Numbered from the stretch's first letter, positions 1,997 to 53,698 are shown. The stretch: 64,000 nucleotides of DNA from Firmicutes bacterium CAG:321_26_22 (GCA_001916775.1 MNTB01000030.1:33962-97961), one strand, 5' to 3'. Notes: generated by a model from the letters alone, not told the origin. Translations and numbers: made by a program.

Positions 1997-2887
1997 CTAT
2001 TTTTCTTTTATCATTTTATTAACTAATAATCCCACATTAGTTCCTAACCCATTTTTAATCTTTGTAATATCTTCTGCTAAATCTTTTTCTCTTCTGATTG
2101 CATTTTTTATTCCAGGTTCAAACTCTTTAAAATTTAAAGAGTTTTTTCTATAGCCACATGCATCATGCAATCTCTTTTCAATATATCTTCTTCCAGAGTT
2201 ATTCATTTTTTTATTTATTATCAAATCTTCTTTGTTTTCAGAATCAAATTCATCAAAATGCATATATAACCATAATTCAAAGCTTGGATTACTAACATAC
2301 AAATTAACATTATTCTTCTTGCAGAATTCAACTACTTTATCATATTGTTCTTCTGTAAAACTATCTTTATCTCTATCGACTACCATATTAAGTGAATCAA
2401 CATCAGACGAATAAGTAACATCCTGCGCCTCAAAATACTTTTCAAAGTTTTTAGCCATATCTTCGTATGCCTCATTTTTAAATAGATACATAAATACTGA
2501 ATCTAAATCTTTATACGGTATTCTATAATTATCACCTTTATACATTTCATCTAATTTTGTAAAAGCACTATCTAAATCAATTTTACCAGGATTTTCATGA
2601 TCCCAATTTGATAATTTGTTTTTCAATTCTCCTACTGTTACTTCATTAGCAGAATTATCAATAAATGTTTGCAGTAATTTAATGACATGTGTTGGATTAC
2701 TGTGTCCTTGATTTGCATAATCTCTCAAAATATTAATAACAGTTACATTTTCTTTTATTAGTGATTCATTCAGTTTTTCAAAATATTTTGGTTCAGTTGC
2801 AGAACCTTCGGAAGCTATAAAATACTTTTTTCTATAATCACTAATTTCAGATTCTCTTTCTGTAGCAAATGGTTCTTTAATCCTCAT
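1997..2887 (-). CDS. RloB-like (Toprim-like) protein, AbiLii-like partner of the upstream ATPase
   Basis: N-terminus MRIKEPFATERESEISDYRKKYFIASEGSATEPKYF is typical of the RloB family. The gene is translationally coupled (11-nt overlap) to the AAA_21 ATPase gene. Confidence 0.55.
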   Translation of the reverse strand: MRIKEPFATERESEISDYRKKYFIASEGSATEPKYFEKLNESLIKENVTVINILRDYANQGHSNPTHVIKLLQTFIDNSANEVTVGELKNKLSNWDHENPGKIDLDSAFTKLDEMYKGDNYRIPYKDLDSVFMYLFKNEAYEDMAKNFEKYFEAQDVTYSSDVDSLNMVVDRDKDSFTEEQYDKVVEFCKKNNVNLYVSNPSFELWLYMHFDEFDSENKEDLIINKKMNNSGRRYIEKRLHDACGYRKNSLNFKEFEPGIKNAIRREKDLAEDITKIKNGLGTNVGLLVNKMIKEK

Positions 2888-4193
2888 AATTAGTATCTAT
2901 GTTGGCTATAGCACCAAATCTACCTTCCAAATATGCTTTATCAATTTTTCTATCAAATCTTGCTACATCTTTGAATTCTTCTAGAGAGAATATTCTTGTG
3001 TTTCCTTCTTCTGATTTTTCTGCAAACCATATTTCATCACGTCTAACTAAGTCAAAATCTAAAGTCTTTAATTCATGCGTAGTTATTATCAATTGGTTAG
3101 TATTATTTGACTCTAAAAATAATTTTAGTAATCCCTCAACAAGCAATGGATGTAAGCTGCTATCTAATTCATCTATTAAATAAACTTTATTATCAGTTAA
3201 TAGTATATCAAGTAATTCTAATACTCTAATTGTACCATCTGATTCTTCATATGCTCCAAAAGAATATTCACTATTATTGTGCATGAATTTTAAACTTTTT
3301 ACTTCAAATTTATTATTTTCATCTTTCTTAACAAGATATAAATCATTTTCAATTCTCAATGTACAACTATTTATTTTTGCCTTTTTAGAAATCATTTCGA
3401 AGTCATTAATAAAATTAGCAAAATCAACATCTGACATTCTTGATCTAATGCTATTAATATCATAATCATCAGCTTTAATATTATTAATATTTATATCCAT
3501 TTTATTTAAATACTTAATTATTTTATCTTTTTTATCAACATAATCTAATGGTAATAATTTATGTGATGCAGGTCTAATAATTATCATTTCATTCGCTAAA
3601 AAATTAAATACATTTATAATATCTTTAAAGAAAATATCATTATTTTTTGACATTATTAATCTTCTTGACATTTCAAGTAAAAATAAATCTGAATTATTAT
3701 TTTTCATTTCCTTTAAACAAGTATTAAAATATTCATTTTTTTCTTTTATATCTGATCCAATTGTCTTTTTCTTTAAATCTCTTTCAAAAATAATTTTTTC
3801 TGTAGGTTTAGTCATATCAATCAACCATTCAGAAACTAACTCATTTCTTGAAAAATTTAACTCAAATCCATATGAATATAATTTTTTGTCTATTTCTATC
3901 TCATATTCAAAGTATGAATCCTTATTTGGATCACCATTTTTTCCTCTATAAAATTGATTATTTATTAAAGTTCTTATTCCACCATTAAAAATACCTTTAA
4001 TAATACTTATAGCAATTATTAAATTAGACTTTCCTGAACCATTAGCTCCAAACAATCCAGAAAATTTTAGAATCTTTTTATTATTTGTTTCAATAATATG
4101 ATTCTCATTATTTCTAACCTTCCCTGCCAACATTGAAAAATGTTGTAATTCATCAAAAGATCTAAAATTCTTAACTTTAAATCCCATTAGCAT
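2877..4193 (-). CDS. AAA_21-type ABC-like ATPase (AbiLi / RloA-like)
   Basis: Walker A GANGSGKSNLIIAI, Walker B LIDELDSSLHP, and an ITTHE motif. It forms an operon with the RloB-like gene. Confidence 0.65.
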   Translation of the reverse strand: MLMGFKVKNFRSFDELQHFSMLAGKVRNNENHIIETNNKKILKFSGLFGANGSGKSNLIIAISIIKGIFNGGIRTLINNQFYRGKNGDPNKDSYFEYEIEIDKKLYSYGFELNFSRNELVSEWLIDMTKPTEKIIFERDLKKKTIGSDIKEKNEYFNTCLKEMKNNNSDLFLLEMSRRLIMSKNNDIFFKDIINVFNFLANEMIIIRPASHKLLPLDYVDKKDKIIKYLNKMDININNIKADDYDINSIRSRMSDVDFANFINDFEMISKKAKINSCTLRIENDLYLVKKDENNKFEVKSLKFMHNNSEYSFGAYEESDGTIRVLELLDILLTDNKVYLIDELDSSLHPLLVEGLLKLFLESNNTNQLIITTHELKTLDFDLVRRDEIWFAEKSEEGNTRIFSLEEFKDVARFDRKIDKAYLEGRFGAIANIDTNYED

Positions 4194-17159: not shown

Positions 17160-17241
17160 TTTATTTCAGAGACATTTGGCTCTGAAATTTTTTTGAAAGA
17201 CATTTGGCTTTCAAAACCTCGAACAACATAGTGTGAGAGGC
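17160..17241 (+). repeat. intergenic double-hairpin repeat, copy B (core CGAACAACATAGTGTGAGAGG)
   Basis: tcagag-ACATTTGG-ctctga, then T7, then gaaag-ACATTTGG-ctttc, then the core. Confidence 0.75.
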
Positions 17242-20316: not shown

Positions 20317-21345
20317 TTATCTTTTTTCCTTTCTCTTTACTTTTATATTTGACAATAGATTTGATATATAATTATATAATTCTTGATGTTCTTTATAAAA
20401 TCTTTCTAATATATCTTTATTTTGTTTATAAATATTAATAGTGCTTTTGACATATTTTAAATCTTCACTAAATGGTGTTGATGGATTTGCTTTCATTGCT
20501 TTAGAAGAATTTGCTCTTGGTATTATTTTAGTATCTATTCGACCATCTTCAGATATTAAAATTTTTTGATTATTCATACTTGGCTTATACATTCTTGTTT
20601 GAGTTGGATCTAAATAATAGTCTTTACCTTGATAAGTGGCTTTAGTTATACGATGATTTGTTAATTTACCTATGTCTTCTGGTGATATATAATAACTAAA
20701 AGCTTCCTGTATTTTATCTTCGAGTAAGTAGGTTAAATCTTCTACTGGGATACCTTTTATATCACTTACTTTTTGTAATTCTTTTTGATAATATGATAAC
20801 ATACTTTTATCTGTTGTAGTATCTTTTTGAAATACACTAATATCATAACTTGTTATGCCATAGTCTAAATAAATATCTTTTAACATTTGTGCTATATGAC
20901 GACATACTGCTTCTCCATTTATTATATTTGTTCCTTGTATAGTCGTTATGTCTTTAACTTTATCTTTTCCAAAGTGAAATTCTTTATCTTTAGATAAATA
21001 TCCAGCATATAACATTTTATTATATAATGTATATATTTCTACAGGATTTTGAAAGTCAAATATTTTATTTAGTTTATTATAGTCCTTTATTAAATTATTA
21101 TATAATTTTCTTATTTCTATTATATCTTTTGTATGTAATGATAATCTTTCTTCTTCACTATATATATAATATATCATATTTAATATGCTTAACATCATTA
21201 ACGATGCGGCATTATTTAAATTTGCTCCTAGTGAGAAGAAGCCTGTACCAAAGGTTGTTAATATTAGTCCTAGATTTATATCACTTATTAATTCACTAGT
21301 ATTATAGTTTATATTACTATATATTTTCTTTATTATTTTATCCAT
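20317..21345 (-). CDS. transglutaminase-like cysteine peptidase-fold membrane protein (paralog 2)
   Basis: Same motifs (INGEAVCRHIAQ, HRITKATYQGKDYYLDPTQ). Tandem paralog with conserved motifs and the same domain order. Confidence 0.5.
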   Translation of the reverse strand: MDKIIKKIYSNINYNTSELISDINLGLILTTFGTGFFSLGANLNNAASLMMLSILNMIYYIYSEEERLSLHTKDIIEIRKLYNNLIKDYNKLNKIFDFQNPVEIYTLYNKMLYAGYLSKDKEFHFGKDKVKDITTIQGTNIINGEAVCRHIAQMLKDIYLDYGITSYDISVFQKDTTTDKSMLSYYQKELQKVSDIKGIPVEDLTYLLEDKIQEAFSYYISPEDIGKLTNHRITKATYQGKDYYLDPTQTRMYKPSMNNQKILISEDGRIDTKIIPRANSSKAMKANPSTPFSEDLKYVKSTINIYKQNKDILERFYKEHQELYNYISNLLSNIKVKRKEKR

Positions 21346-21430
21346 AACAATTCCCCTTCATATGTGCTGGGTATTATACCATATATTATAAAAAAAAGCA
21401 AATTTTTGTTTGCTTATGATAAAACTTAAT

Positions 21431-21506
21431 TTAAAGACTTTGGCTTTAAATTACTATAGAAAGACCTTAGGCTTTCTATAGCAGTGAACAACGAAGTGTG
21501 AACTCT
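21431..21506 (+). repeat. intergenic double-hairpin repeat, copy C (core GTGAACAACGAAGTGTGAACTC)
   Basis: ttaaag-ACTTTGG-ctttaa, then ctatagaaag-ACCTTAGG-ctttctatag, then the core. Confidence 0.75.
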
Positions 21507-21539
21507 AAAAAAATAGTCTAGTATAATTTACTAAACTAT

Positions 21540-47382: not shown

Positions 47383-48423
47383 TTATTTTTTACTTTTTTT
47401 GTAATGGCATTTCGGATAATTACTGCAGCCAATGAAAATTCCATATTTTCCTTTACGCTCTATTAATTTACCTCCACAATCTGGACAGATCATACTATTT
47501 TTCGAACTATAATCTTCCATTTTATTACTTTTACCCATATTACATCTATCACATAGGGTTTGAAGATTACTCATGACAGTTTTTCCGCCTTTAGATACTG
47601 GAATAATGTGATCAACGTGAAGTTTTGCTCCGTCTTTAGCTGATATACCACATAATTTGCAAGTAAAGTTATCTCTTTTCAAAACATTATATCTAATATC
47701 ATCATTCATAATTTTTCTTTCCTGCTTTATGGTTTCTTCGTATTTATTACCATTTTGCCATTCTTTATACAATTTAACTAAATCTTCAAAAGAATAGTTT
47801 CCATATCTAGTTTCATTAACCTTTCCTGCATTACTTCTATAATAAACTTCTAGCTTTAATTTTATTAAAAACTCTTTTCTTTTATGAATAGAATCATTTA
47901 ATACTCTATTTTCTATTTTTTGAAATTTTTTTGATGAATAATTTGTTTTATTTTTAGATTTATAATTAATAATTTTATCTACTTCTTTGGTATATTCTTC
48001 TAATAAATCGATATTATATATAGCATTTTCTATATCAGTTCTAATTAAATCAATATTATTTTCTATATGATATTTTATAATACTTGATCCTGTCACTCTC
48101 TCTAAACTTTTTCTTGAGTATTCGCGGTCTATAATATTATGTTTTTTCTTTGTTATCCTTTTAAAATGATATTTTTCGTTTAATTTATTCAATTCTTGTA
48201 TTTTTATACTTGATTTTGATACTTCTTCATTTTCTTTTTTTATCATTTTTCTTATTACAAATATATATAATATTAGTGGAAACAATCCTATCAAAGTGCT
48301 GATGACTACAATTGTTTGTTCATTTAATGCTAATAATTTAAATAATATATATGATGTATAATAACTAATATAACCACTAATGATAATTAATGTTGTTTTT
48401 TGCCATTTCTTCATATTTGACAC
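47383..48423 (-). CDS. membrane-anchored HNH endonuclease with a C-terminal topoisomerase-type C4 zinc finger
   Basis: Two N-terminal TM helices. HNH motif LHVDHIIPVSKGGKTVMSNLQTLCDRCN. CPDCGGKLIERKGKYGIFIGCSNYPKC matches the zf-C4_Topoisom pattern. Confidence 0.65.
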   Translation of the reverse strand: MSNMKKWQKTTLIIISGYISYYTSYILFKLLALNEQTIVVISTLIGLFPLILYIFVIRKMIKKENEEVSKSSIKIQELNKLNEKYHFKRITKKKHNIIDREYSRKSLERVTGSSIIKYHIENNIDLIRTDIENAIYNIDLLEEYTKEVDKIINYKSKNKTNYSSKKFQKIENRVLNDSIHKRKEFLIKLKLEVYYRSNAGKVNETRYGNYSFEDLVKLYKEWQNGNKYEETIKQERKIMNDDIRYNVLKRDNFTCKLCGISAKDGAKLHVDHIIPVSKGGKTVMSNLQTLCDRCNMGKSNKMEDYSSKNSMICPDCGGKLIERKGKYGIFIGCSNYPKCHYKKSKK

Positions 48424-48514
48424 CTCTTTTTTATTATAACATACATTTTAAATAATCAATATATAATTTAACTAAGCAATTTGACAAAAGTATATATTTA
48501 TGCTATTATTAGTA

Positions 48515-48628
48515 TGTAAGCAAGGGAACTTGCATAAAATAAAAATAGGAAACATTCAATAGTCACAATTGAGTGTTGCCAATAATTTGGTTTCACCTGA
48601 CTTAAAGCATTAAGTTAGGTGATTTTCT
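48515..48628 (+). ncRNA. candidate type I antitoxin antisense sRNA (promoter TTGACA-17-TATTAT at 48481-48509; terminator hairpin 48585-48614 + T-run)
   Basis: Promoter and terminator bracket about 110 nt of non-coding sequence. Its 3' end lies 3 nt from the stop of the convergent 27-aa hydrophobic ORF. Confidence 0.45.
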
Positions 48629-48630
48629 TT

Positions 48631-48714
48631 TTAATTAAATGTTTTAAATAACAATATAATCAAAAGGAAGATTGTCATAGTTTGAAAGAAAATTAAAAAA
48701 GCTTTCTTGCTCAT
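48631..48714 (-). CDS. candidate type I toxin: 27-aa hydrophobic peptide MSKKAFLIFFQTMTIFLLIILLFKTFN
   Basis: Found by manual translation. Strong RBS GGAAGGGAGG 7 nt upstream. Promoter TTGTTT-18-TATAAT at about 48781-48815 (minus). Single predicted TM helix with a KK N-terminus. Confidence 0.5.
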   Translation of the reverse strand: MSKKAFLIFFQTMTIFLLIILLFKTFN

Positions 48715-48869
48715 AATATCGCCTCCCTTCCTTAATAGAAGTTCGGCAAGCACCCAACTTATTTGAATATCTCCTAATACAATTATAACATTTTTTATAT
48801 CTTAAAAACAAGCGAACACCTTAATATTTATGGTGTTTTCTTTAATATTTACTATAACTTTACAAACAA

Positions 48870-49009
48870 TGTAAATAATTCATAGACTTCTACTGATGGC
48901 TATGAATTACTATAGAAAGACATTAGGCTTTCTATAGCAGTGAACAACGAAGTGTGAACTCTAAAAAAGAAGGATTTATTTTTTCCTTCTTTTAAATATT
49001 TTTACTAGT
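48870..49009 (+). repeat. intergenic double-hairpin repeat, copy E; 48910-49009 is 100% identical to 51899-51998, and 49010-49046 is a degraded copy of the amidase 3' coding end
   Basis: Base-by-base comparison with copy F. Includes the last 6 codons plus stop of the Amidase_2 gene. Confidence 0.8.
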
Positions 49010-49040
49010 CTCTCTAATTATTTATCTAAGTCATTATTAT

Positions 49041-49934
49041 TTATATTTTTTCTAAGACTCCTAATTCTAAATCTTTTATTGTATATAAGTGCTCAATTTT
49101 ATCATAGGCATCTTCTAGATTCAGTCTAGATTTGTTCCAACCATTTCCATCTGTAATCCAAACAAATTTAACACCATTTAGTTTATTAATTTCATTATTT
49201 AGTTCTACATAACTTTTTGCAGTTTCATTCGGTTTAGATCCTTGTGTTCCATAAAAATTCACTTCCATTACTATTAATTCGTTATTTGAAGGACTCTTAA
49301 AAACAAAATCAAACTTCTTTGTTGCCTTTCCTATTGCACATAGATTTGTTCCATATTCTTTATCAATATCTTTATATTTCATTTGTTTTTGATATGGTAC
49401 TCCAAGTTTTTTTATGAATTCCTCTACTAAGTCTTCCATTATTTTTCCACTGCGATTTTTTCTACTATTTGAATCTAATCCCACTTCTATCCCTATCGCA
49501 TAATCAACAAGATTCTTAATTTTTCTATTACTTATTAAGTCAAATAATCCACTATTTTTTAAAAAATCTGCATAATTGTTGATCGGCTTGTCAATTTCTT
49601 TAAAATCGTAACAAATAAATTTTTCTTCTAGAAATTTAAAGTCCATATCTTTTATGGAATTTAACATATCTACTGTTGATGCATTAATTATATGAAATTT
49701 ATATTCGTGAGTTGCTAATAAAATCGGTATTGATTTCATTATTTCTGGATACTCATTTATTAAGTCAACAAATTCTTCCTCTATATTTTCTTTTCCAATC
49801 AGGCTATTTAATAAGTTTAAATGTCTTTCATAATCTTTGATATTTAAATAAACTTTAGAAAAATCAACAAAAAAATCCGCTGGGGTTATACTTTTTTTTA
49901 ATGATAACATTAGGTCATTAAAATTTCTTTTCAC
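49041..49934 (-). CDS. putative Type II restriction endonuclease (DpnII/MboI-like, GATC-specific) - third gene of the R-M cassette
   Basis: The gene order Dam-like MTase, N6_N4 MTase, then a roughly 290-aa protein mirrors the S. pneumoniae DpnII cassette (dpnM-dpnA-dpnB). Start overlaps the upstream MTase. Confidence 0.5.
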   Translation of the reverse strand: MKRNFNDLMLSLKKSITPADFFVDFSKVYLNIKDYERHLNLLNSLIGKENIEEEFVDLINEYPEIMKSIPILLATHEYKFHIINASTVDMLNSIKDMDFKFLEEKFICYDFKEIDKPINNYADFLKNSGLFDLISNRKIKNLVDYAIGIEVGLDSNSRKNRSGKIMEDLVEEFIKKLGVPYQKQMKYKDIDKEYGTNLCAIGKATKKFDFVFKSPSNNELIVMEVNFYGTQGSKPNETAKSYVELNNEINKLNGVKFVWITDGNGWNKSRLNLEDAYDKIEHLYTIKDLELGVLEKI

Positions 49935-50697
49935 TTATATCACTTTCCTTTCTTCTTATTGTTAAATCTAAATATTCTTTTTCTTTTTCTATTCCTATAT
50001 ATCTTCTTTTTAATCTGCTTGCCGCTATTCCTGTTGTACCGCTTCCATTAAATGGATCTAATATTAAATCATTTTCCTCTGTAGAAGCAAGTATTATTCT
50101 TTCTAATATTTCAATTGGTTTTTGTGTTGGATGTTTACCACAAGTCTTTTCGCTAGGCTTTGTTAAACTAGTTTCCCATACATCTTTCATTTGCTTATTA
50201 TTATTTATTTTTTTCATTAGTGAGTAATTAAACTTATGTTTATTTTTTTTGTCGGCTTTTTTAGCCCAAAGTATTGTTTCAGTAGAATGAGTAAATGCTC
50301 TGCAACTAATATTTGGCGGTGGGTTTAATTTTCTCCAAGTAATGTTATTTATTATTTTAAATCCCTCTTCTTCTAATGCCATTCCTATTGAATAAATATT
50401 ATGCATGGTTCCACTAATCCAAATAGTACCATTTTCTTTTAGTATTTTTTTACATAGTCTAATCCATTTTTTATTAAATTCGTGTTTTTCTTTTATACTA
50501 ATTGCATTGTCCCATGGACCTTTATTAACTGATACCATCTTTCCAGCACTACAAGATATTCCATTATTTGATAAAAAGTATGGTGGATCTGCAAATACCA
50601 TATCAATACTATTTGGCTCTATATTTCTTAGTACTTTTAATGAATCTCCTTGTATTAATTTGAAATTATCTTCTTCATAATAATATTTTTTTATCAT
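49918..50697 (-). CDS. DNA methyltransferase, N6_N4_Mtase family (DpnA-like second methylase)
   Basis: Motif IV DMVFADPPY precedes motif I ILDPFNGSGTTGIAA (beta-class order). Confidence 0.8.
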   Translation of the reverse strand: MIKKYYYEEDNFKLIQGDSLKVLRNIEPNSIDMVFADPPYFLSNNGISCSAGKMVSVNKGPWDNAISIKEKHEFNKKWIRLCKKILKENGTIWISGTMHNIYSIGMALEEEGFKIINNITWRKLNPPPNISCRAFTHSTETILWAKKADKKNKHKFNYSLMKKINNNKQMKDVWETSLTKPSEKTCGKHPTQKPIEILERIILASTEENDLILDPFNGSGTTGIAASRLKRRYIGIEKEKEYLDLTIRRKESDISEKKF

Positions 50698-50714
50698 ATT
50701 ATTTATCCTATATA

Positions 50715-51569
50715 TTATAGGTCAAAGCCTCTTTTATTTTCATAATTTGTAATAATAACTTCTTCTACTTTGCCTCTTTTTTTACCATTGGCGTTGATAC
50801 TTCTCTTTGCTTCTATTAAATGTATATTATAATCTTTATAAAGTTCATTTATTAGTTCAGTATTATGATTAGATAACATTACGTAGCAGCCTTTGTCTGA
50901 TAATTCCCTATATACTCTGGCTAACCTCTTTTGTTGTTCTTTACCAAAGCCATCCTCTGTATAACTATTGAAAGTTGAGGTATCTGAATCATATGGTGGA
51001 TCAAAATATATAAAATCTCCTTTTTTTGCTTCTTTTACTGCTTCTTCAAAATCTGTTGATAATATTTTTATATCATTGTAATTTAAAAATCCACATATAA
51101 TTCCTAAGTTTTGTCCTTCATAGGTATTTACTTTTGTTTTTTTACCAAATGGTACATTAAATTCGTTTTTACTATTTACTCTGTATAATCCATTAAAACA
51201 AGCTTTATTTAAATAAATTGTTCTTGCTGCTCTTTTATAATCTACTACTTTATTAAATTTTTTCTTATCTCTATCCATATTCCTTATTGTATAATAATAT
51301 TCTTCTGAATGTTTCATTTCATGATTATTTAGTTCTCTGCACATTGCTTCAAATTTTTTTTCATCTTTAATGCATTCGTATACATTCATAAGTTCTTTAT
51401 TTGAGTCATTAATAACTGCATTCTTTGGAGATAATTCAAATAGTAATGCTCCCCCTCCAACAAATGGTTCATAATATGTATTAAACTCATCAGGAACATA
51501 TTTTTTTAATTTATCTATTATTTGTCTTTTTCCGCCTGCCCATTTTACAAATGGCCTTCCTTTTATCAT
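50715..51569 (-). CDS. Dam-family (D12 class) DNA adenine methyltransferase, GATC-type (DpnM-like)
   Basis: FVKWAGGKRQI N-terminal hallmark, EPFVGGGALLFEL SAM site, IYFDPPY motif IV. Confidence 0.85.
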   Translation of the reverse strand: MIKGRPFVKWAGGKRQIIDKLKKYVPDEFNTYYEPFVGGGALLFELSPKNAVINDSNKELMNVYECIKDEKKFEAMCRELNNHEMKHSEEYYYTIRNMDRDKKKFNKVVDYKRAARTIYLNKACFNGLYRVNSKNEFNVPFGKKTKVNTYEGQNLGIICGFLNYNDIKILSTDFEEAVKEAKKGDFIYFDPPYDSDTSTFNSYTEDGFGKEQQKRLARVYRELSDKGCYVMLSNHNTELINELYKDYNIHLIEAKRSINANGKKRGKVEEVIITNYENKRGFDL

Positions 51570-51866
51570 TATTTCACCATCCTATGTTTATTATAATCTT
51601 GCTTTCTATACAATTATAACATTTTTTACATGCTAAAAACAAGCGAACACCTAATATTTATTATATTTTTTGCTATGTTTGATAAATGTTTTTATTTATC
51701 CTATTATTTATTAGTATGTAAACAATAAAATTTATATAAAATAAAAAACAGGAAACGTTTAATAGTAATAATTGAGTGTTATTAATAATTTAGTTTCAAC
51801 TGTAAATGCAATATAGTCAATCACAATTCGGTTATTTGTAGAATTTATAATAATTAATATATACTT

Positions 51867-51998
51867 AAAATCAGAGACTATTAAGAGGCTCTGATTTTCT
51901 ATAGAAAGACATTAGGCTTTCTATAGCAGTGAACAACGAAGTGTGAACTCTAAAAAAGAAGGATTTATTTTTTCCTTCTTTTAAATATTTTTACTAGT
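51867..51998 (+). repeat. intergenic double-hairpin repeat, copy F (100-nt perfect direct repeat of copy E)
   Basis: aatcagag-ACTATTAAGAGG-ctctgatt, then ctatagaaag-ACATTAGG-ctttctatag, then GTGAACAACGAAGTGTGAACTC. Confidence 0.8.
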
Positions 51999-52664
51999 TT
52001 TATCTATAAACCATAACAATGGATTTTGTCTCTCTAATTCTTTATCTAAGTTATTATTATTTGTATCTTTATTATCTTTATTGTCATTTCTTTCTCTATT
52101 TTCATCTTCTTTTTCTGGCTCTTTAGTTGTCTCTTTATTATCTTCTTTTAGTTCTTCTACTGGTGGTTTAGTAGTTGTAAACTTACTATAATTATTAGTC
52201 CATGCTGCATCATAATATGTATTTTCTGTTCCTAATGCCATATATAATCCTTTATTATAGTGGTATTTTTTTACTATTGACTCAGTATTTTTAGTTAGTA
52301 ACATTTGCCCTCCGCCATAACCTGCAGTTTCAGTTAGGTAGATATCTTCAGTGTTATATATCTTTGTTCCTACTATGAAAGGTCTGGCTCTAGTTTCTGA
52401 TAGTTTTTCATTTATCATATTTAGAAATCTATCCCACCCCATATCTAGTGTTCTATGAGGACAATATTTATTAGTGTAATCCTGGTGTTTTGTTACTTTA
52501 TCGATATCCCAATTATATCTATTTAATATGTCTACGATTAGGTCAACTGCATTCTGTTCGGCTTTAATAAATCGGTCTCCTCCTGATAATGAATAACATA
52601 TTTCAATGGCTATTCCTTCTCTATTTCCTTTACCATTTCCATCCATATAATCTAATGTTTCCAT
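51981..52664 (-). CDS. N-acetylmuramoyl-L-alanine amidase (Amidase_2/PGRP), exon 2 (C-terminal part) of an intron-split endolysin
   Basis: REGIAIEICYS and KYCPHRT continue the Amidase_2 fold that begins in 53462-53698. The C-terminal linker is rich in K/E/D/N. Confidence 0.7.
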   Translation of the reverse strand: METLDYMDGNGKGNREGIAIEICYSLSGGDRFIKAEQNAVDLIVDILNRYNWDIDKVTKHQDYTNKYCPHRTLDMGWDRFLNMINEKLSETRARPFIVGTKIYNTEDIYLTETAGYGGGQMLLTKNTESIVKKYHYNKGLYMALGTENTYYDAAWTNNYSKFTTTKPPVEELKEDNKETTKEPEKEDENRERNDNKDNKDTNNNNLDKELERQNPLLWFIDKTSKNI

Positions 52665-53467
52665 TAGTACTGACTATCTCTTACATTTTAAAATGCACAC
52701 CCGTTTCGAGTTATGTATCAATAATAACCCTACGAAGCGATTGGGCTTCTAGTCGATACAGGTTCCTTTTTGACAAATTTATATCCACCAATTTGTTTTC
52801 CTATACCATTTATATTTCTTGAAATATGTCTTATATCTAAATTTGTTTCTTTACTTGCTTCATTAATACTCTTATATTCTCTTATAAAGTTGCCTTCTAA
52901 ATCATATTGTAGAATCGGTGTAATATCGGTTGATTTTCTCAAACCAGTCTTATAAGCATGAGTATTATTTTGATAAAGAGTACACCATTCCAAATTATCA
53001 ATATAATTATTTTGTTTATTTCCATCTATGTGATTTACGTATGAATAATTATTTGGATTGGGTATAAACGCTTCAGCCACAAGTTTGTGAATATGTTTGT
53101 TTTTTTCTACCTTGTTTTTTGTTAAACATATTCTCCTGTAGCCTCCATTTATTGTTCCTTGTGTTATTTTTTCTTTTACTTTTATAATATTATATCTTTT
53201 TGTCAAATAATTATATCTGGTGTAATTTCTAGCAAGTATTTTTACATTTCCAAAGTTAGATATTTCGTATAGTCCTTCATAATCTTTTATAGGTTTCCAT
53301 ATTTCTTTCATCACCATCACCCATAAAGATTATATAAAAATAGTAAATATATGTCAATAGGCTTCCCACGGGATTGCCATATCTTAAAGACTTAGGTTTC
53401 CCCGTTAGCACACAAAAATGTGTACCCCACTGATTAATGGAAAAAGTGTGTTCAGGCAATGTTACTT
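52662..53467 (-). mobile_element. group I intron (about 806 nt) carrying an HNH homing-endonuclease ORF, inserted in the endolysin gene
   Basis: Exon 1 ends ...CAGGU. The intron segment GCCUG 10 nt downstream forms P1 with a terminal U-G wobble. The intron ends in G (omega) and an exon 1 + exon 2 join is in frame (...NGWHAG/ETLDYMDGNGKGNREGIAIEI). A P7-like GACTA/TAGTC pair and an AAGAgATAGTC S-like element sit near the 3' end. Confidence 0.65.
52730..53320 (-). CDS. HNH homing endonuclease (NUMOD4 + HNH_3), intron-encoded
   Basis: WKPIKDYEGLYEISNFGNV (NUMOD4) and HIHKLVAEAF...VNHIDGNKQNNYIDNLEW (HNH). Confidence 0.8.
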   Translation of the reverse strand: MMVMKEIWKPIKDYEGLYEISNFGNVKILARNYTRYNYLTKRYNIIKVKEKITQGTINGGYRRICLTKNKVEKNKHIHKLVAEAFIPNPNNYSYVNHIDGNKQNNYIDNLEWCTLYQNNTHAYKTGLRKSTDITPILQYDLEGNFIREYKSINEASKETNLDIRHISRNINGIGKQIGGYKFVKKEPVSTRSPIAS

Positions 53468-53698
53468 ACCTGCGTGCCAACCATTTCTATTTTCAGCCAA
53501 TCCTTGAACTATTTCTTTATCATCTACAGCATAATGAAATGATGTTTCATAGTCATTATTTGTCATATAACTTATTTCATTTCGAGCAGAAGCATCGTTA
53601 GCGGTATTATGAACTACTATTCTAGTTGGTGTCATTTCATAAGGGCATTTTAGATAATATCTACTCTCTGGTACTATCTTCTTTACTATGTTTACCAT
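53462..53698 (-). CDS. N-acetylmuramoyl-L-alanine amidase (Amidase_2), exon 1 (N-terminal part)
   Basis: RIVVHNTANDASARNEISYM...SFHYAVDD...GWHAGK matches the Amidase_2 N-terminus. It stops at a TAA immediately after the predicted 5' splice site. Confidence 0.7.
   Translation of the reverse strand: MVNIVKKIVPESRYYLKCPYEMTPTRIVVHNTANDASARNEISYMTNNDYETSFHYAVDDKEIVQGLAENRNGWHAGK

Follow-up and report, generated by a model that had tools for sequence, protein, structure and literature searches.

The locus at 48481-48811 of the 64,000-nt stretch of DNA analysed here (the window) is best explained, with a probability of roughly three in four, as a type I toxin-antitoxin module on the chromosome, belonging to a new sequence family. 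The host is an uncultured member of the Bacilli represented by a Hadza metagenome-assembled genome from the human gut. A pair made up of a small hydrophobic membrane peptide and a convergent antisense sRNA had been proposed in a first-pass annotation of the sequence, and the comparative evidence presented below supports that reading as far as the architecture of the locus is concerned.

Putative toxin gene on the minus strand

The putative toxin gene is preceded by a minus-strand promoter (48778..48811), which was found as previously described at 48811-48782 and which consists of a -35 element TTGTTT (48811-48806), an 18-nt spacer, and a TG-extended -10 element TGtTATAAT (48790-48782). Read from the sequence, the TG extension occupies 48790-48789 and the TATAAT hexamer 48787-48782. 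The mRNA would start at about 48775 (AGGA). The strong ribosome-binding site and the 27-codon hydrophobic ORF of the first-pass annotation were both located on this strand: a Shine-Dalgarno (SD) sequence, GGAAGGGAGG, at 48731-48722, 7 nt 5' of the ATG at 48714, and an ORF at 48714-48631 with 27 codons and a stop codon at 48633-48631. The predicted peptide, MSKKAFLIFFQTMTIFLLIILLFKTFN, is 27 aa long and begins with MSKK, continues with a hydrophobic stretch of 18-19 residues, and ends in KTFN, in line with the size (20-60 aa), predicted transmembrane helix, and charged ends expected of a type I toxin. Among strains carrying this version of the module the ORF varies at two positions (A5D and Q11K); both changes are non-synonymous and uninformative.

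The promoters by themselves are no proof of a gene, since promoter-like sites as a class are not enriched in DNA of this composition (25 found against 23 expected at 27% G+C, or 26.8% to the first decimal), and a point against the toxin-antitoxin reading is that promoter-like hexamers and peptides rich in F, I, L, and K arise readily in AT-rich DNA. The combination of GGAGG with a start codon 4-10 nt further on is rare, however, with 24 sites on the two strands of the window, 12 of which begin ORFs of more than 100 aa. A -10-like match at 21095 was discarded as a chance match within an ORF, and no paralogue of the toxin peptide was found in the 64-kb window.

Predicted antisense RNA on the plus strand

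The opposite strand carries the candidate antitoxin gene. Its promoter, TTGACA-17-TATTAT with a TG extension (48481..48509), agrees with the earlier description, scores 11/12, and is the best promoter-like site of a 3-kb scan; it is almost invariant in all module types. The predicted sRNA (48516..48632) folds into hairpin 1 (48520-48533), an A-rich linker, hairpin 2 (48551-48577), hairpin 3 (48578-48591), and a terminator (48593-48622) that is followed by TTTTCTTTTT, with the U-run at 48623-48632. This terminator is the sole terminator-like site in the 3-kb scan. The hairpin and T-run of the first-pass annotation are therefore present, but the stem has 13 pairs, one of them G-U, and not 12; the length of the RNA was revised from about 110 to about 117 nt; and its end, formerly placed 3 nt from the toxin stop codon, was moved to 48632, giving a 2-nt overlap between the U-run and the stop codon. 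A folding energy of -36.9 kcal/mol (z = -6.35) was computed for the 117-nt RNA, a stability reached by 0 of 200 shuffled sequences.

The sRNA sits opposite the toxin 3'UTR (48630-48535) in a convergent 3' overlap. From this geometry about 100 nt of perfect complementarity are predicted between the two RNAs, and the 3' end region of the toxin mRNA lies wholly beneath the sRNA, in accordance with the original proposal that the sRNA covers the toxin 3'UTR. At the level of sequence the antisense RNA gene has a promoter and a terminator of its own, and both are conserved, as in a type I system.

Diverged versions of the module

Related loci were recovered to a total of about 55, including 44 further loci obtained by scanning metagenome contigs with the conserved 5' block of the sRNA. 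They comprise at least five strongly diverged module types, four with intact peptides of 27-30 aa and a fifth that is a pseudogene. The type A peptide, which is that of the window, reads MSKK[A/D]FLIFF[Q/K]TMTIFLLIILLFKTFN; those of types B, C, and D read MKKKDLLITFLILIIILLIVSLLTLIIKK, MKKRIFIIRILRYIAIILFLLSLLVAVIKK, and MKTKTFVIKVLRLIAIILLLSTLLVLAIKK, respectively, are 29-30 aa long, have KK C-termini, and are encoded at the same position as the type A ORF; type E is a type D-like pseudogene. In all four peptides a hydrophobic core lies between basic N- and C-termini. Every intact ORF stands behind GGAGG and stops 102-111 nt before the conserved sRNA 5' block. Both promoters are present in every type and are near-identical in three; the toxin promoter block in particular is near-identical in types A, B, and C despite the diverged sequence downstream of it.

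Type C is represented by locus L019 of a sister lineage (PcrA 94% identical), a whole-locus homologue that is 73% identical to the window and lies directly before pcrA. The two loci are near-identical in both promoters and over the initial ~45 nt of the sRNA, whereas the 5'UTR, the ORF, and the terminator have been replaced: a GGAGG-led ORF of 30 codons, whose peptide is 26% identical to that of the window, occupies the same place as the window ORF, and a new terminator occupies the place of the old one. Types A and B occur in strains whose PcrA is 98-100% identical to that of the window and are therefore regarded as alleles of one locus in one species, while types D and E occupy other genomic contexts.

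From base composition, a random 27-codon frame at 26.8% G+C is free of stop codons with p ~0.09; four diverged intact ORFs are thus unlikely to have arisen by chance, which argues for a translated gene. The retention of ORF, SD sequence, and length through four diverged types supports the toxin-antitoxin reading, as judged from sequence comparison.

The sRNA follows the same pattern. In six diverged versions it is 115-118 nt long and, according to folds computed type by type, shares one plan: hairpin 1 (5 bp, invariant except for its loop, which varies), an A-rich linker, an extended hairpin 2, a spacer, and a terminator. The terminator hairpins of the six versions have 8-13 bp and a U-run and abut or overlap the toxin stop codon. 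Their stems (UCACCUGACUUAA, AGUACUUAAUC, GACACUUAUUCA, GACACUCU) have no sequence relation to one another while the hairpin is kept, so that the structure is conserved and the sequence is not. When the versions were aligned with MAFFT and analysed with RNAalifold, hairpins 1 and 2 were recovered with two pairs changed on both sides; the terminator was missing from this consensus because MAFFT misaligns stems unrelated in sequence, and the comparison of terminators is based on the per-type folds and not on that alignment. Several sRNA helices contain G-U pairs, which on the other strand would turn into A.C mismatches, and the terminator U-run exists on the plus strand only. A point against is that in types D and E the terminator hairpin is no more stable on the sRNA strand than on the opposite one. 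Taken as a pattern of conservation, the constancy of sRNA promoter, length, and terminator position at the stop codon, with the terminator sequence itself replaced, would favour the toxin-antitoxin reading and lends it support.

Predicted structure of the toxin mRNA

The toxin mRNA is taken to end at a U-run, AUUUUUAUUUUA (48546-48535), which is conserved in all types, and from the inferred start to this U-run the mRNA would measure 237-241 nt in every type. Minimum free energy (MFE) folds were computed per type, and in 5/5 types the first ~30 nt pair with the ~35 nt that precede the U-run. In the window the 5' strand of this long-distance helix is AGGAGAUAUUCAAAUAAGUUGGGUGCUUGCC (48745..48775, minus strand) and its partner lies at 48580-48547, so that the 3' strand together with the U-run occupies 48535..48580. 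In addition, the predicted folds contain an anti-SD hairpin (ACUUCU...AGGAAG) that includes the SD sequence (48722..48744, minus strand). A CU-rich anti-SD element (CUUCU, CUUUC, CCUCU, or CCUCC) is found just 5' of the SD sequence in all types, and the SD sequence is unpaired with a predicted probability of 0.0-0.4. By computation, then, every type has the structured, translation-limiting mRNA of a type I toxin, with both the anti-SD hairpin and the closing helix.

The helix covaries. Cognate 5'/3' duplexes range from -29 to -35 kcal/mol (z = -5.7 to -9.3), and most non-cognate ones from -9 to -26 kcal/mol. Three non-cognate duplexes match the weakest cognate one, which is a point against: the type A 5' strand with the type B 3' strand gives -30.2 kcal/mol, and both combinations of types D and E, which are closely related, give -31.7 kcal/mol. 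The RNAalifold consensus structure of the toxin mRNA is the same long-distance helix, with 91.2% of cells paired and changes on both sides in 11 of 28 pairs; none of 500 shuffles reached the observed values, and sliding the helix partners by 1-3 columns as a control left 37-48% of cells paired. This count is drawn from six sequences of five types and is strong but not exhaustive.

Sequestration of the SD sequence and a helix that hides the 5' end are both known from type I toxin mRNAs (PMC7472228, PMC6733600), and the presence here of a covarying closing helix with an SD-masking hairpin supports the toxin-antitoxin reading. The 3' strand of the helix lies wholly beneath the sRNA, and the toxin 5'UTR consequently resembles the sRNA; the repeats shared by the 5'UTR and the sRNA region are inverted, which means that the two RNAs are alike there and not complementary. 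We do not propose a scheme in which binding of the sRNA frees or masks the SD sequence by way of the long-distance helix, as blocking the 3'UTR has hardly any effect on the predicted SD accessibility, a point against the toxin-antitoxin reading.

Loss of the putative toxin gene and orphan sRNA genes

Toxin genes have repeatedly been deleted or broken while the sRNA gene survives. A clean deletion of the type A toxin down to KTFN* was found at seven loci (L032, L044, L045, L053, L055, L057, and L064), all of which are of type B and have, upstream of that module, a type A sRNA gene that is still intact. Two loci (L048 and L058) have a type C-like sRNA gene without a toxin, one (L054) has lost the 5'UTR with the start and first codons, and another (L059) has lost the start codon and acquired a frameshift. 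The window adds a further case, an orphan copy of the sRNA gene in decay at 51678-51802. The reverse arrangement, a toxin gene without an sRNA gene, was not seen among the retrieved loci, of which about 13 were retrieved independently of the sRNA; this absence is only weakly probed, because most loci were fetched with an sRNA-derived pattern. Loss or pseudogenisation of the toxin with retention of the sRNA would be in keeping with an antitoxin function and, from the sequences compared, supports the toxin-antitoxin reading.

The main rival, which we consider unlikely, has no addiction logic: the peptide would be a small membrane protein that does no harm, such as one regulating a membrane complex, and its mRNA would only by chance be under the control of a cis-antisense RNA. 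An ORF and an sRNA that look real would also suit a non-toxic peptide, and weak sub-threshold matches of the type D peptide to small membrane regulators such as MgtR show that non-toxic roles for such peptides exist. Yet hardly any peptide sequence is shared between types whose RNA control elements are fixed, which would be unusual for a protein with a specific partner. The repeated deletion and pseudogenisation of the gene with the sRNA retained, and the coexistence of two very different alleles at one locus in one species, also tell against a harmless protein, and the double lock on translation formed by the long-distance helix and the anti-SD hairpin is a hallmark of toxin mRNAs (PMC6733600, PMC7472228).

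Genomic context

On the minus strand the genes run tsaD, an amidase gene, dpnM-dpnA-dpnB (the DpnII operon), the module, a gene for an HNH/Zn-ribbon protein with an N-terminal membrane anchor, and pcrA. The HNH protein is indexed in 565 blocks of the assembly collection. The module was near-unchanged in 10/10 strain contigs retrieved through it, only two of which (L003 and L008) have DpnII as well. Related lineages keep the frame tsaEBD-amidase-[variable]-pcrA, with cargo that differs or is absent. The module occupies a variable cargo site (here with DpnII and the HNH nuclease) between the amidase gene and pcrA. Searches of annotated phage and plasmid records and of viral contigs turned up no similar DNA.

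The neighbouring nuclease gene raises the question of whether the plus-strand RNA chiefly controls it, as an antisense RNA to read-through from the upstream promoter. The gene (47383-48414) lies 200 nt downstream on the strand of the small ORF, and the 3-kb scan gave no canonical terminator between the two on the minus strand. Such a role is nevertheless the least probable of the explanations considered, and very improbable in itself: HNH homologues (61-67% identity) occur in unrelated contexts without the module, the module lies directly before pcrA without an HNH gene in L019, L032, L052, and others, and the toxin transcript would be ended in all types by a conserved hairpin with a U-run. 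The notion that the module is an appendage of the HNH/Zn-ribbon gene was likewise rejected, as those homologues sit elsewhere and leave no room for it.

Parts of the module recur within the array. The sRNA gene has a degenerate second copy (51678..51802, plus strand; 78% identity over 125 nt) in which a promoter, TTGATA-17-TATTAT, and hairpin 2 survive but hairpin 1 and the terminator are gone. This copy faces no toxin ORF and is found only in DpnII-carrying strains. A copy of the toxin promoter (51608..51669, minus strand; 89% identity over 63 nt) precedes dpnM. The same promoter block thus stands before dpnM and, in part, before the HNH gene, and in many strains copies of the sRNA promoter block lie directly before these promoters. 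Together with the variation of the amidase-pcrA cargo among strains and species, this would suit a region that is mainly a cassette boundary and expression scaffold, in which back-to-back promoters and hairpins insulate the cargo and provide homology for recombination and the ORF is incidental. We hold this to be very unlikely, since an incidental ORF would not keep an SD sequence, an ATG, 27-30 codons, and a hydrophobic core through four replacements (p ~0.09 per type). The covarying 5'-3' helix, moreover, joins the UTRs of that very ORF, and the related modules L046 and L059 lie at unrelated loci without the cargo array.

A toxin-antitoxin module and a junction may also be combined. It is possible, though doubtful, that the module is more than one further type I pair, being at once a portable cassette junction and a pair whose antitoxin acts by mimicry. 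The conserved joint of the module, in which the sRNA promoter block stands back-to-back with the TG-extended -10 promoter, may be the portable junction of a cassette array at the amidase-pcrA site. Defence cargo (the DpnII operon, the HNH nuclease, and others) may gain its expression through this junction and be swapped there by homologous recombination, with the toxin keeping it in place, and orphan sRNA genes may confer immunity against incoming toxin alleles. By mimicry, the sRNA, which resembles the toxin 5'UTR, may displace the 5'UTR from the 3'UTR and so act as a strand-displacement switch and not by masking the ribosome-binding site.

Comparison with known families

The search of the peptide against type I toxin families that the first-pass annotation had recommended gave no match in Pfam or NCBIfam, and this held for all four peptides. 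Rfam gave no match at the gathering threshold and only chance matches at E <= 10. Searches with a 40-aa extended ORF through 5.8 billion and 1.8 billion predicted proteins returned nothing beyond near-identical copies that belong to this species. One near-identical protein copy was located on a contig that appears to be chimeric. A scan for the peptide pattern in one genome per species matched this species only, and a full-text search found no paper containing the peptide sequences in the library covered. The module is therefore classified outside every described family and, by its architecture, as a new sequence family of the type I toxin-antitoxin kind. The lack of homology to known toxins and antitoxins is also a point against the toxin-antitoxin reading. 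The likeness to Fst, TxpA, and BsrG noted at first pass holds for the general physicochemical type of the peptide; there is no sequence relationship, and the features that define Fst are absent.

Among the closest known systems are txpA/RatA, bsrG/SR4, bsrE/SR5, and yonT/SR6 of Bacillus subtilis, whose genes are convergent and whose antisense RNAs overlap the toxin mRNAs in their 3' part (PMC8594479). Such a convergent 3' overlap is common to published Gram-positive type I systems (PMC8594479), the toxins of which are small and hydrophobic with charged ends (PMC6563280). In bsrG/SR4 the first contact is made through the terminator loop of the antitoxin, which both drives decay of the mRNA and blocks its translation (PMC3834814). 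The module shares with these systems a small single-helix membrane peptide and an SD sequence that is partly sequestered in the toxin mRNA; in contrast, no sequence or profile similarity to TxpA/RatA or BsrG/SR4 was found, and none to the B. subtilis systems in either peptide or RNA. Further differences are that the module is not in a prophage and that the stretch targeted by its sRNA takes in the 3' strand of a covarying 5'-3' closing helix. The B. subtilis type I toxins (txpA, bsrG, bsrE, and yonT) are 38-59 aa long, and the module peptide, with 27-30 aa, is shorter. The overlap in type A stops at the stop codon, whereas in the B. subtilis systems it enters the ORF.

The par locus (fst/RNA II) of Enterococcus faecalis pAD1, of the Fst/Ldr family, likewise has convergent promoters. 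Its toxin mRNA measures about 230-240 nt and carries both a 5' stem-loop over the SD sequence, which is thereby masked, and an intramolecular helix (5'-UH) that hides the extreme 5' end (PMC7472228). The module differs from it in several ways. None of the four peptides contains proline or glycine and there is accordingly no PXXXG motif, nor is there a Pfam Fst match. The two RNAs do not share a bidirectional terminator: the hairpin at 48593-48622 has a U-run on the plus strand only, and the toxin mRNA has its own at 48546-48535. The direct repeats DRa/DRb, which in par pair the antitoxin with the translation start, are absent, and the toxin 5'UTR of the module resembles the sRNA instead. The sRNA measures about 117 nt as against about 40 nt in par.

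A 5'-3' long-distance closure combined with local SD-masking hairpins is also found in aapA/IsoA of Helicobacter pylori and hok/Sok of plasmid R1 (PMC6733600). In those systems the long-distance helix itself masks the SD sequence. The antisense RNA there is overlapped by the toxin mRNA over its full length and, once the 3' end has been trimmed, targets the 5' region or the ORF (for Hok/Sok, the leader upstream of the toxin ORF), whereas in the module the SD sequence of types A and B lies outside the helix and the antisense RNA is at the 3' end, opposite the 3' partner of the helix. Their hosts are Gram-negative and their sequences are unrelated to the module. By description, and not by sequence, the module was also compared with CD2517.1/RCd8 and other pairs of Clostridioides difficile, a low-G+C Firmicute, which are convergent and overlapping and whose toxins (34-59 aa) have a hydrophobic helix, a lysine-rich C-terminus, no homology to other families, and linkage to mobile or defence regions (PMC6563280). 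The C. difficile modules lie near prophages and CRISPR arrays, and the present one lies in the amidase-pcrA cargo site beside DpnII.

Proposed mechanism and significance

In the mechanism that we propose, the TG-extended -10 promoter would give rise to a minus-strand mRNA of about 240 nt encoding the 27-aa peptide, a predicted single transmembrane helix with basic ends. This mRNA would be shut twice, by the long-distance 5'-3' helix and by the CU-rich anti-SD hairpin over the ribosome-binding site, and as it folds shut in these two ways the message is probably stable and poorly translated. By analogy with known systems, the closing helix probably hides the 5' end of the mRNA and so stabilises it, like the 5'-UH of par RNA I (PMC7472228); a second possible effect, known from aapA and hok (PMC6733600), is to hold the mRNA in an inert state. 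The strong sigma-70-type promoter on the plus strand would produce the convergent sRNA of about 117 nt that ends at the toxin stop codon. Pairing of the two RNAs would, as in txpA/RatA and bsrG/SR4, form a long duplex that is cut by RNase III and would open the closing helix (PMC8594479, PMC3834814), so that both ends of the mRNA would be exposed to decay and the toxin would be kept off. If the sRNA were lost, the longer-lived mRNA would be translated and the peptide would presumably damage the membrane. The module probably stabilises the variable amidase-pcrA cargo site or competes within it.

To our knowledge, most known type I families come from a few cultured species. The new family comes from an abundant, uncultured, low-G+C gut bacterium, in which natural variation does much of the work of a mutagenesis study: five sequence-replaced versions share one architecture, and the informative variants include a covarying closing helix, clean toxin deletions with orphan antitoxins, and two alleles segregating at one locus. 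Three questions are thereby made testable, namely the silencing of a helix-closed toxin mRNA by an antisense RNA bound to its 3' part, the stabilisation by such a module of defence cargo such as the adjacent DpnII system, and the action of orphan antitoxins as anti-addiction elements. If the peptide is toxic, the repertoire of type I systems would gain very short (27-30 aa) membrane toxins without proline or glycine.

Strain-variable DNA around the candidate toxin-antitoxin module

The DpnII operon (dpnM, dpnA, and dpnB; 49041-52000), approximately 3 kb in length, was identified as a strain-variable insertion when the window was compared with the contigs of other strains. It lies between two direct repeats of 112 nt that are 97% identical and contain a terminator and a hairpin (48898-49009 and 51887-51998). 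Ahead of the operon lie a copy of the toxin promoter, i.e., the promoter of the 27-codon minus-strand ORF of the candidate type I toxin-antitoxin module, and a decaying orphan sRNA gene, which is a degenerate second copy with no toxin ORF opposite. Type I toxin-antitoxin loci are known to be duplicated in tandem, and tandem modules were observed in contig L046 (reverse strand, approximately 2628-3006) and in loci of type B, one of the diverged versions of the module. In these tandems, the sRNA gene of one type precedes the next module's toxin promoter by approximately 100 nt, and the two matches to the sRNA block (the conserved 5' part of the sRNA gene, used as a scan probe) are spaced by 373 nt in the seven tandem type B loci. 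The DpnII operon is arranged as if it had taken the place of the toxin in a tandem module.

The interval between the amidase gene and pcrA was observed to be a hot spot of variable cargo (contigs compared: L019-L022 and L023-L066). L019 has an AAA_14/DUF4143 ATPase here, L020 has a TPR protein together with an SDF fragment, and L021, L022, and L052 have no cargo. Many strains of the species represented by the window carry DpnII, HNH, or both in this interval. Relative to strain L002, the amidase gene in the window is split by an insertion of 828 bp (52644-53471) containing a NUMOD4/HNH_3 homing-endonuclease ORF (52730-53320), which some strains share (L045, L055, and L057) and others lack. Weak, sub-threshold Rfam matches to group I introns (E = 0.006 and 0.05) were obtained on the minus strand on either side of this ORF, and the insertion probably represents a group I intron that carries a homing endonuclease.

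Dispersed repeats and RNA families

A double-hairpin element of approximately 90 nt is dispersed in the window (48876-48968, 51866-51958, 21420-21512, and 17160-17240, described on the plus strand), where it is positioned after terminators. In plus-strand order, it consists of a 7-bp hairpin, a 10-bp hairpin, and CAGTGAACAACGAAGTGTGAAC; the tops of both hairpins share the form ...AGAC-loop-GGCU..., and the stems show compensatory changes between copies (CATAG/CTATG, CAGAG/CTCTG, and TAAAG/CTTTA). An Rfam search of 48380-49060, which contains one copy, returned no match. The element may belong to the REP-like repeats, encode a small RNA, or serve as a binding site for a protein. The only Rfam family at gathering threshold within the window was the DUF3800-I RNA (RF02969; 10795-10919, plus strand; 65.6 bits versus a gathering score of 44.2).

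HNH/zinc-ribbon protein

The HNH/zinc-ribbon protein of 343 aa (47383-48414, minus strand) has two membrane helices at its N-terminus in addition to an HNH nuclease domain and a zinc ribbon of the topoisomerase type, and the promoter of its gene has the ATGTTATAAT -10 block in common with the toxin promoter. The protein is indexed by 565 blocks of the assembly collection. Since its homologues of 55-70% identity are adjoined by recombinases, transposases, and AbiE genes, the protein behaves as mobile cargo.
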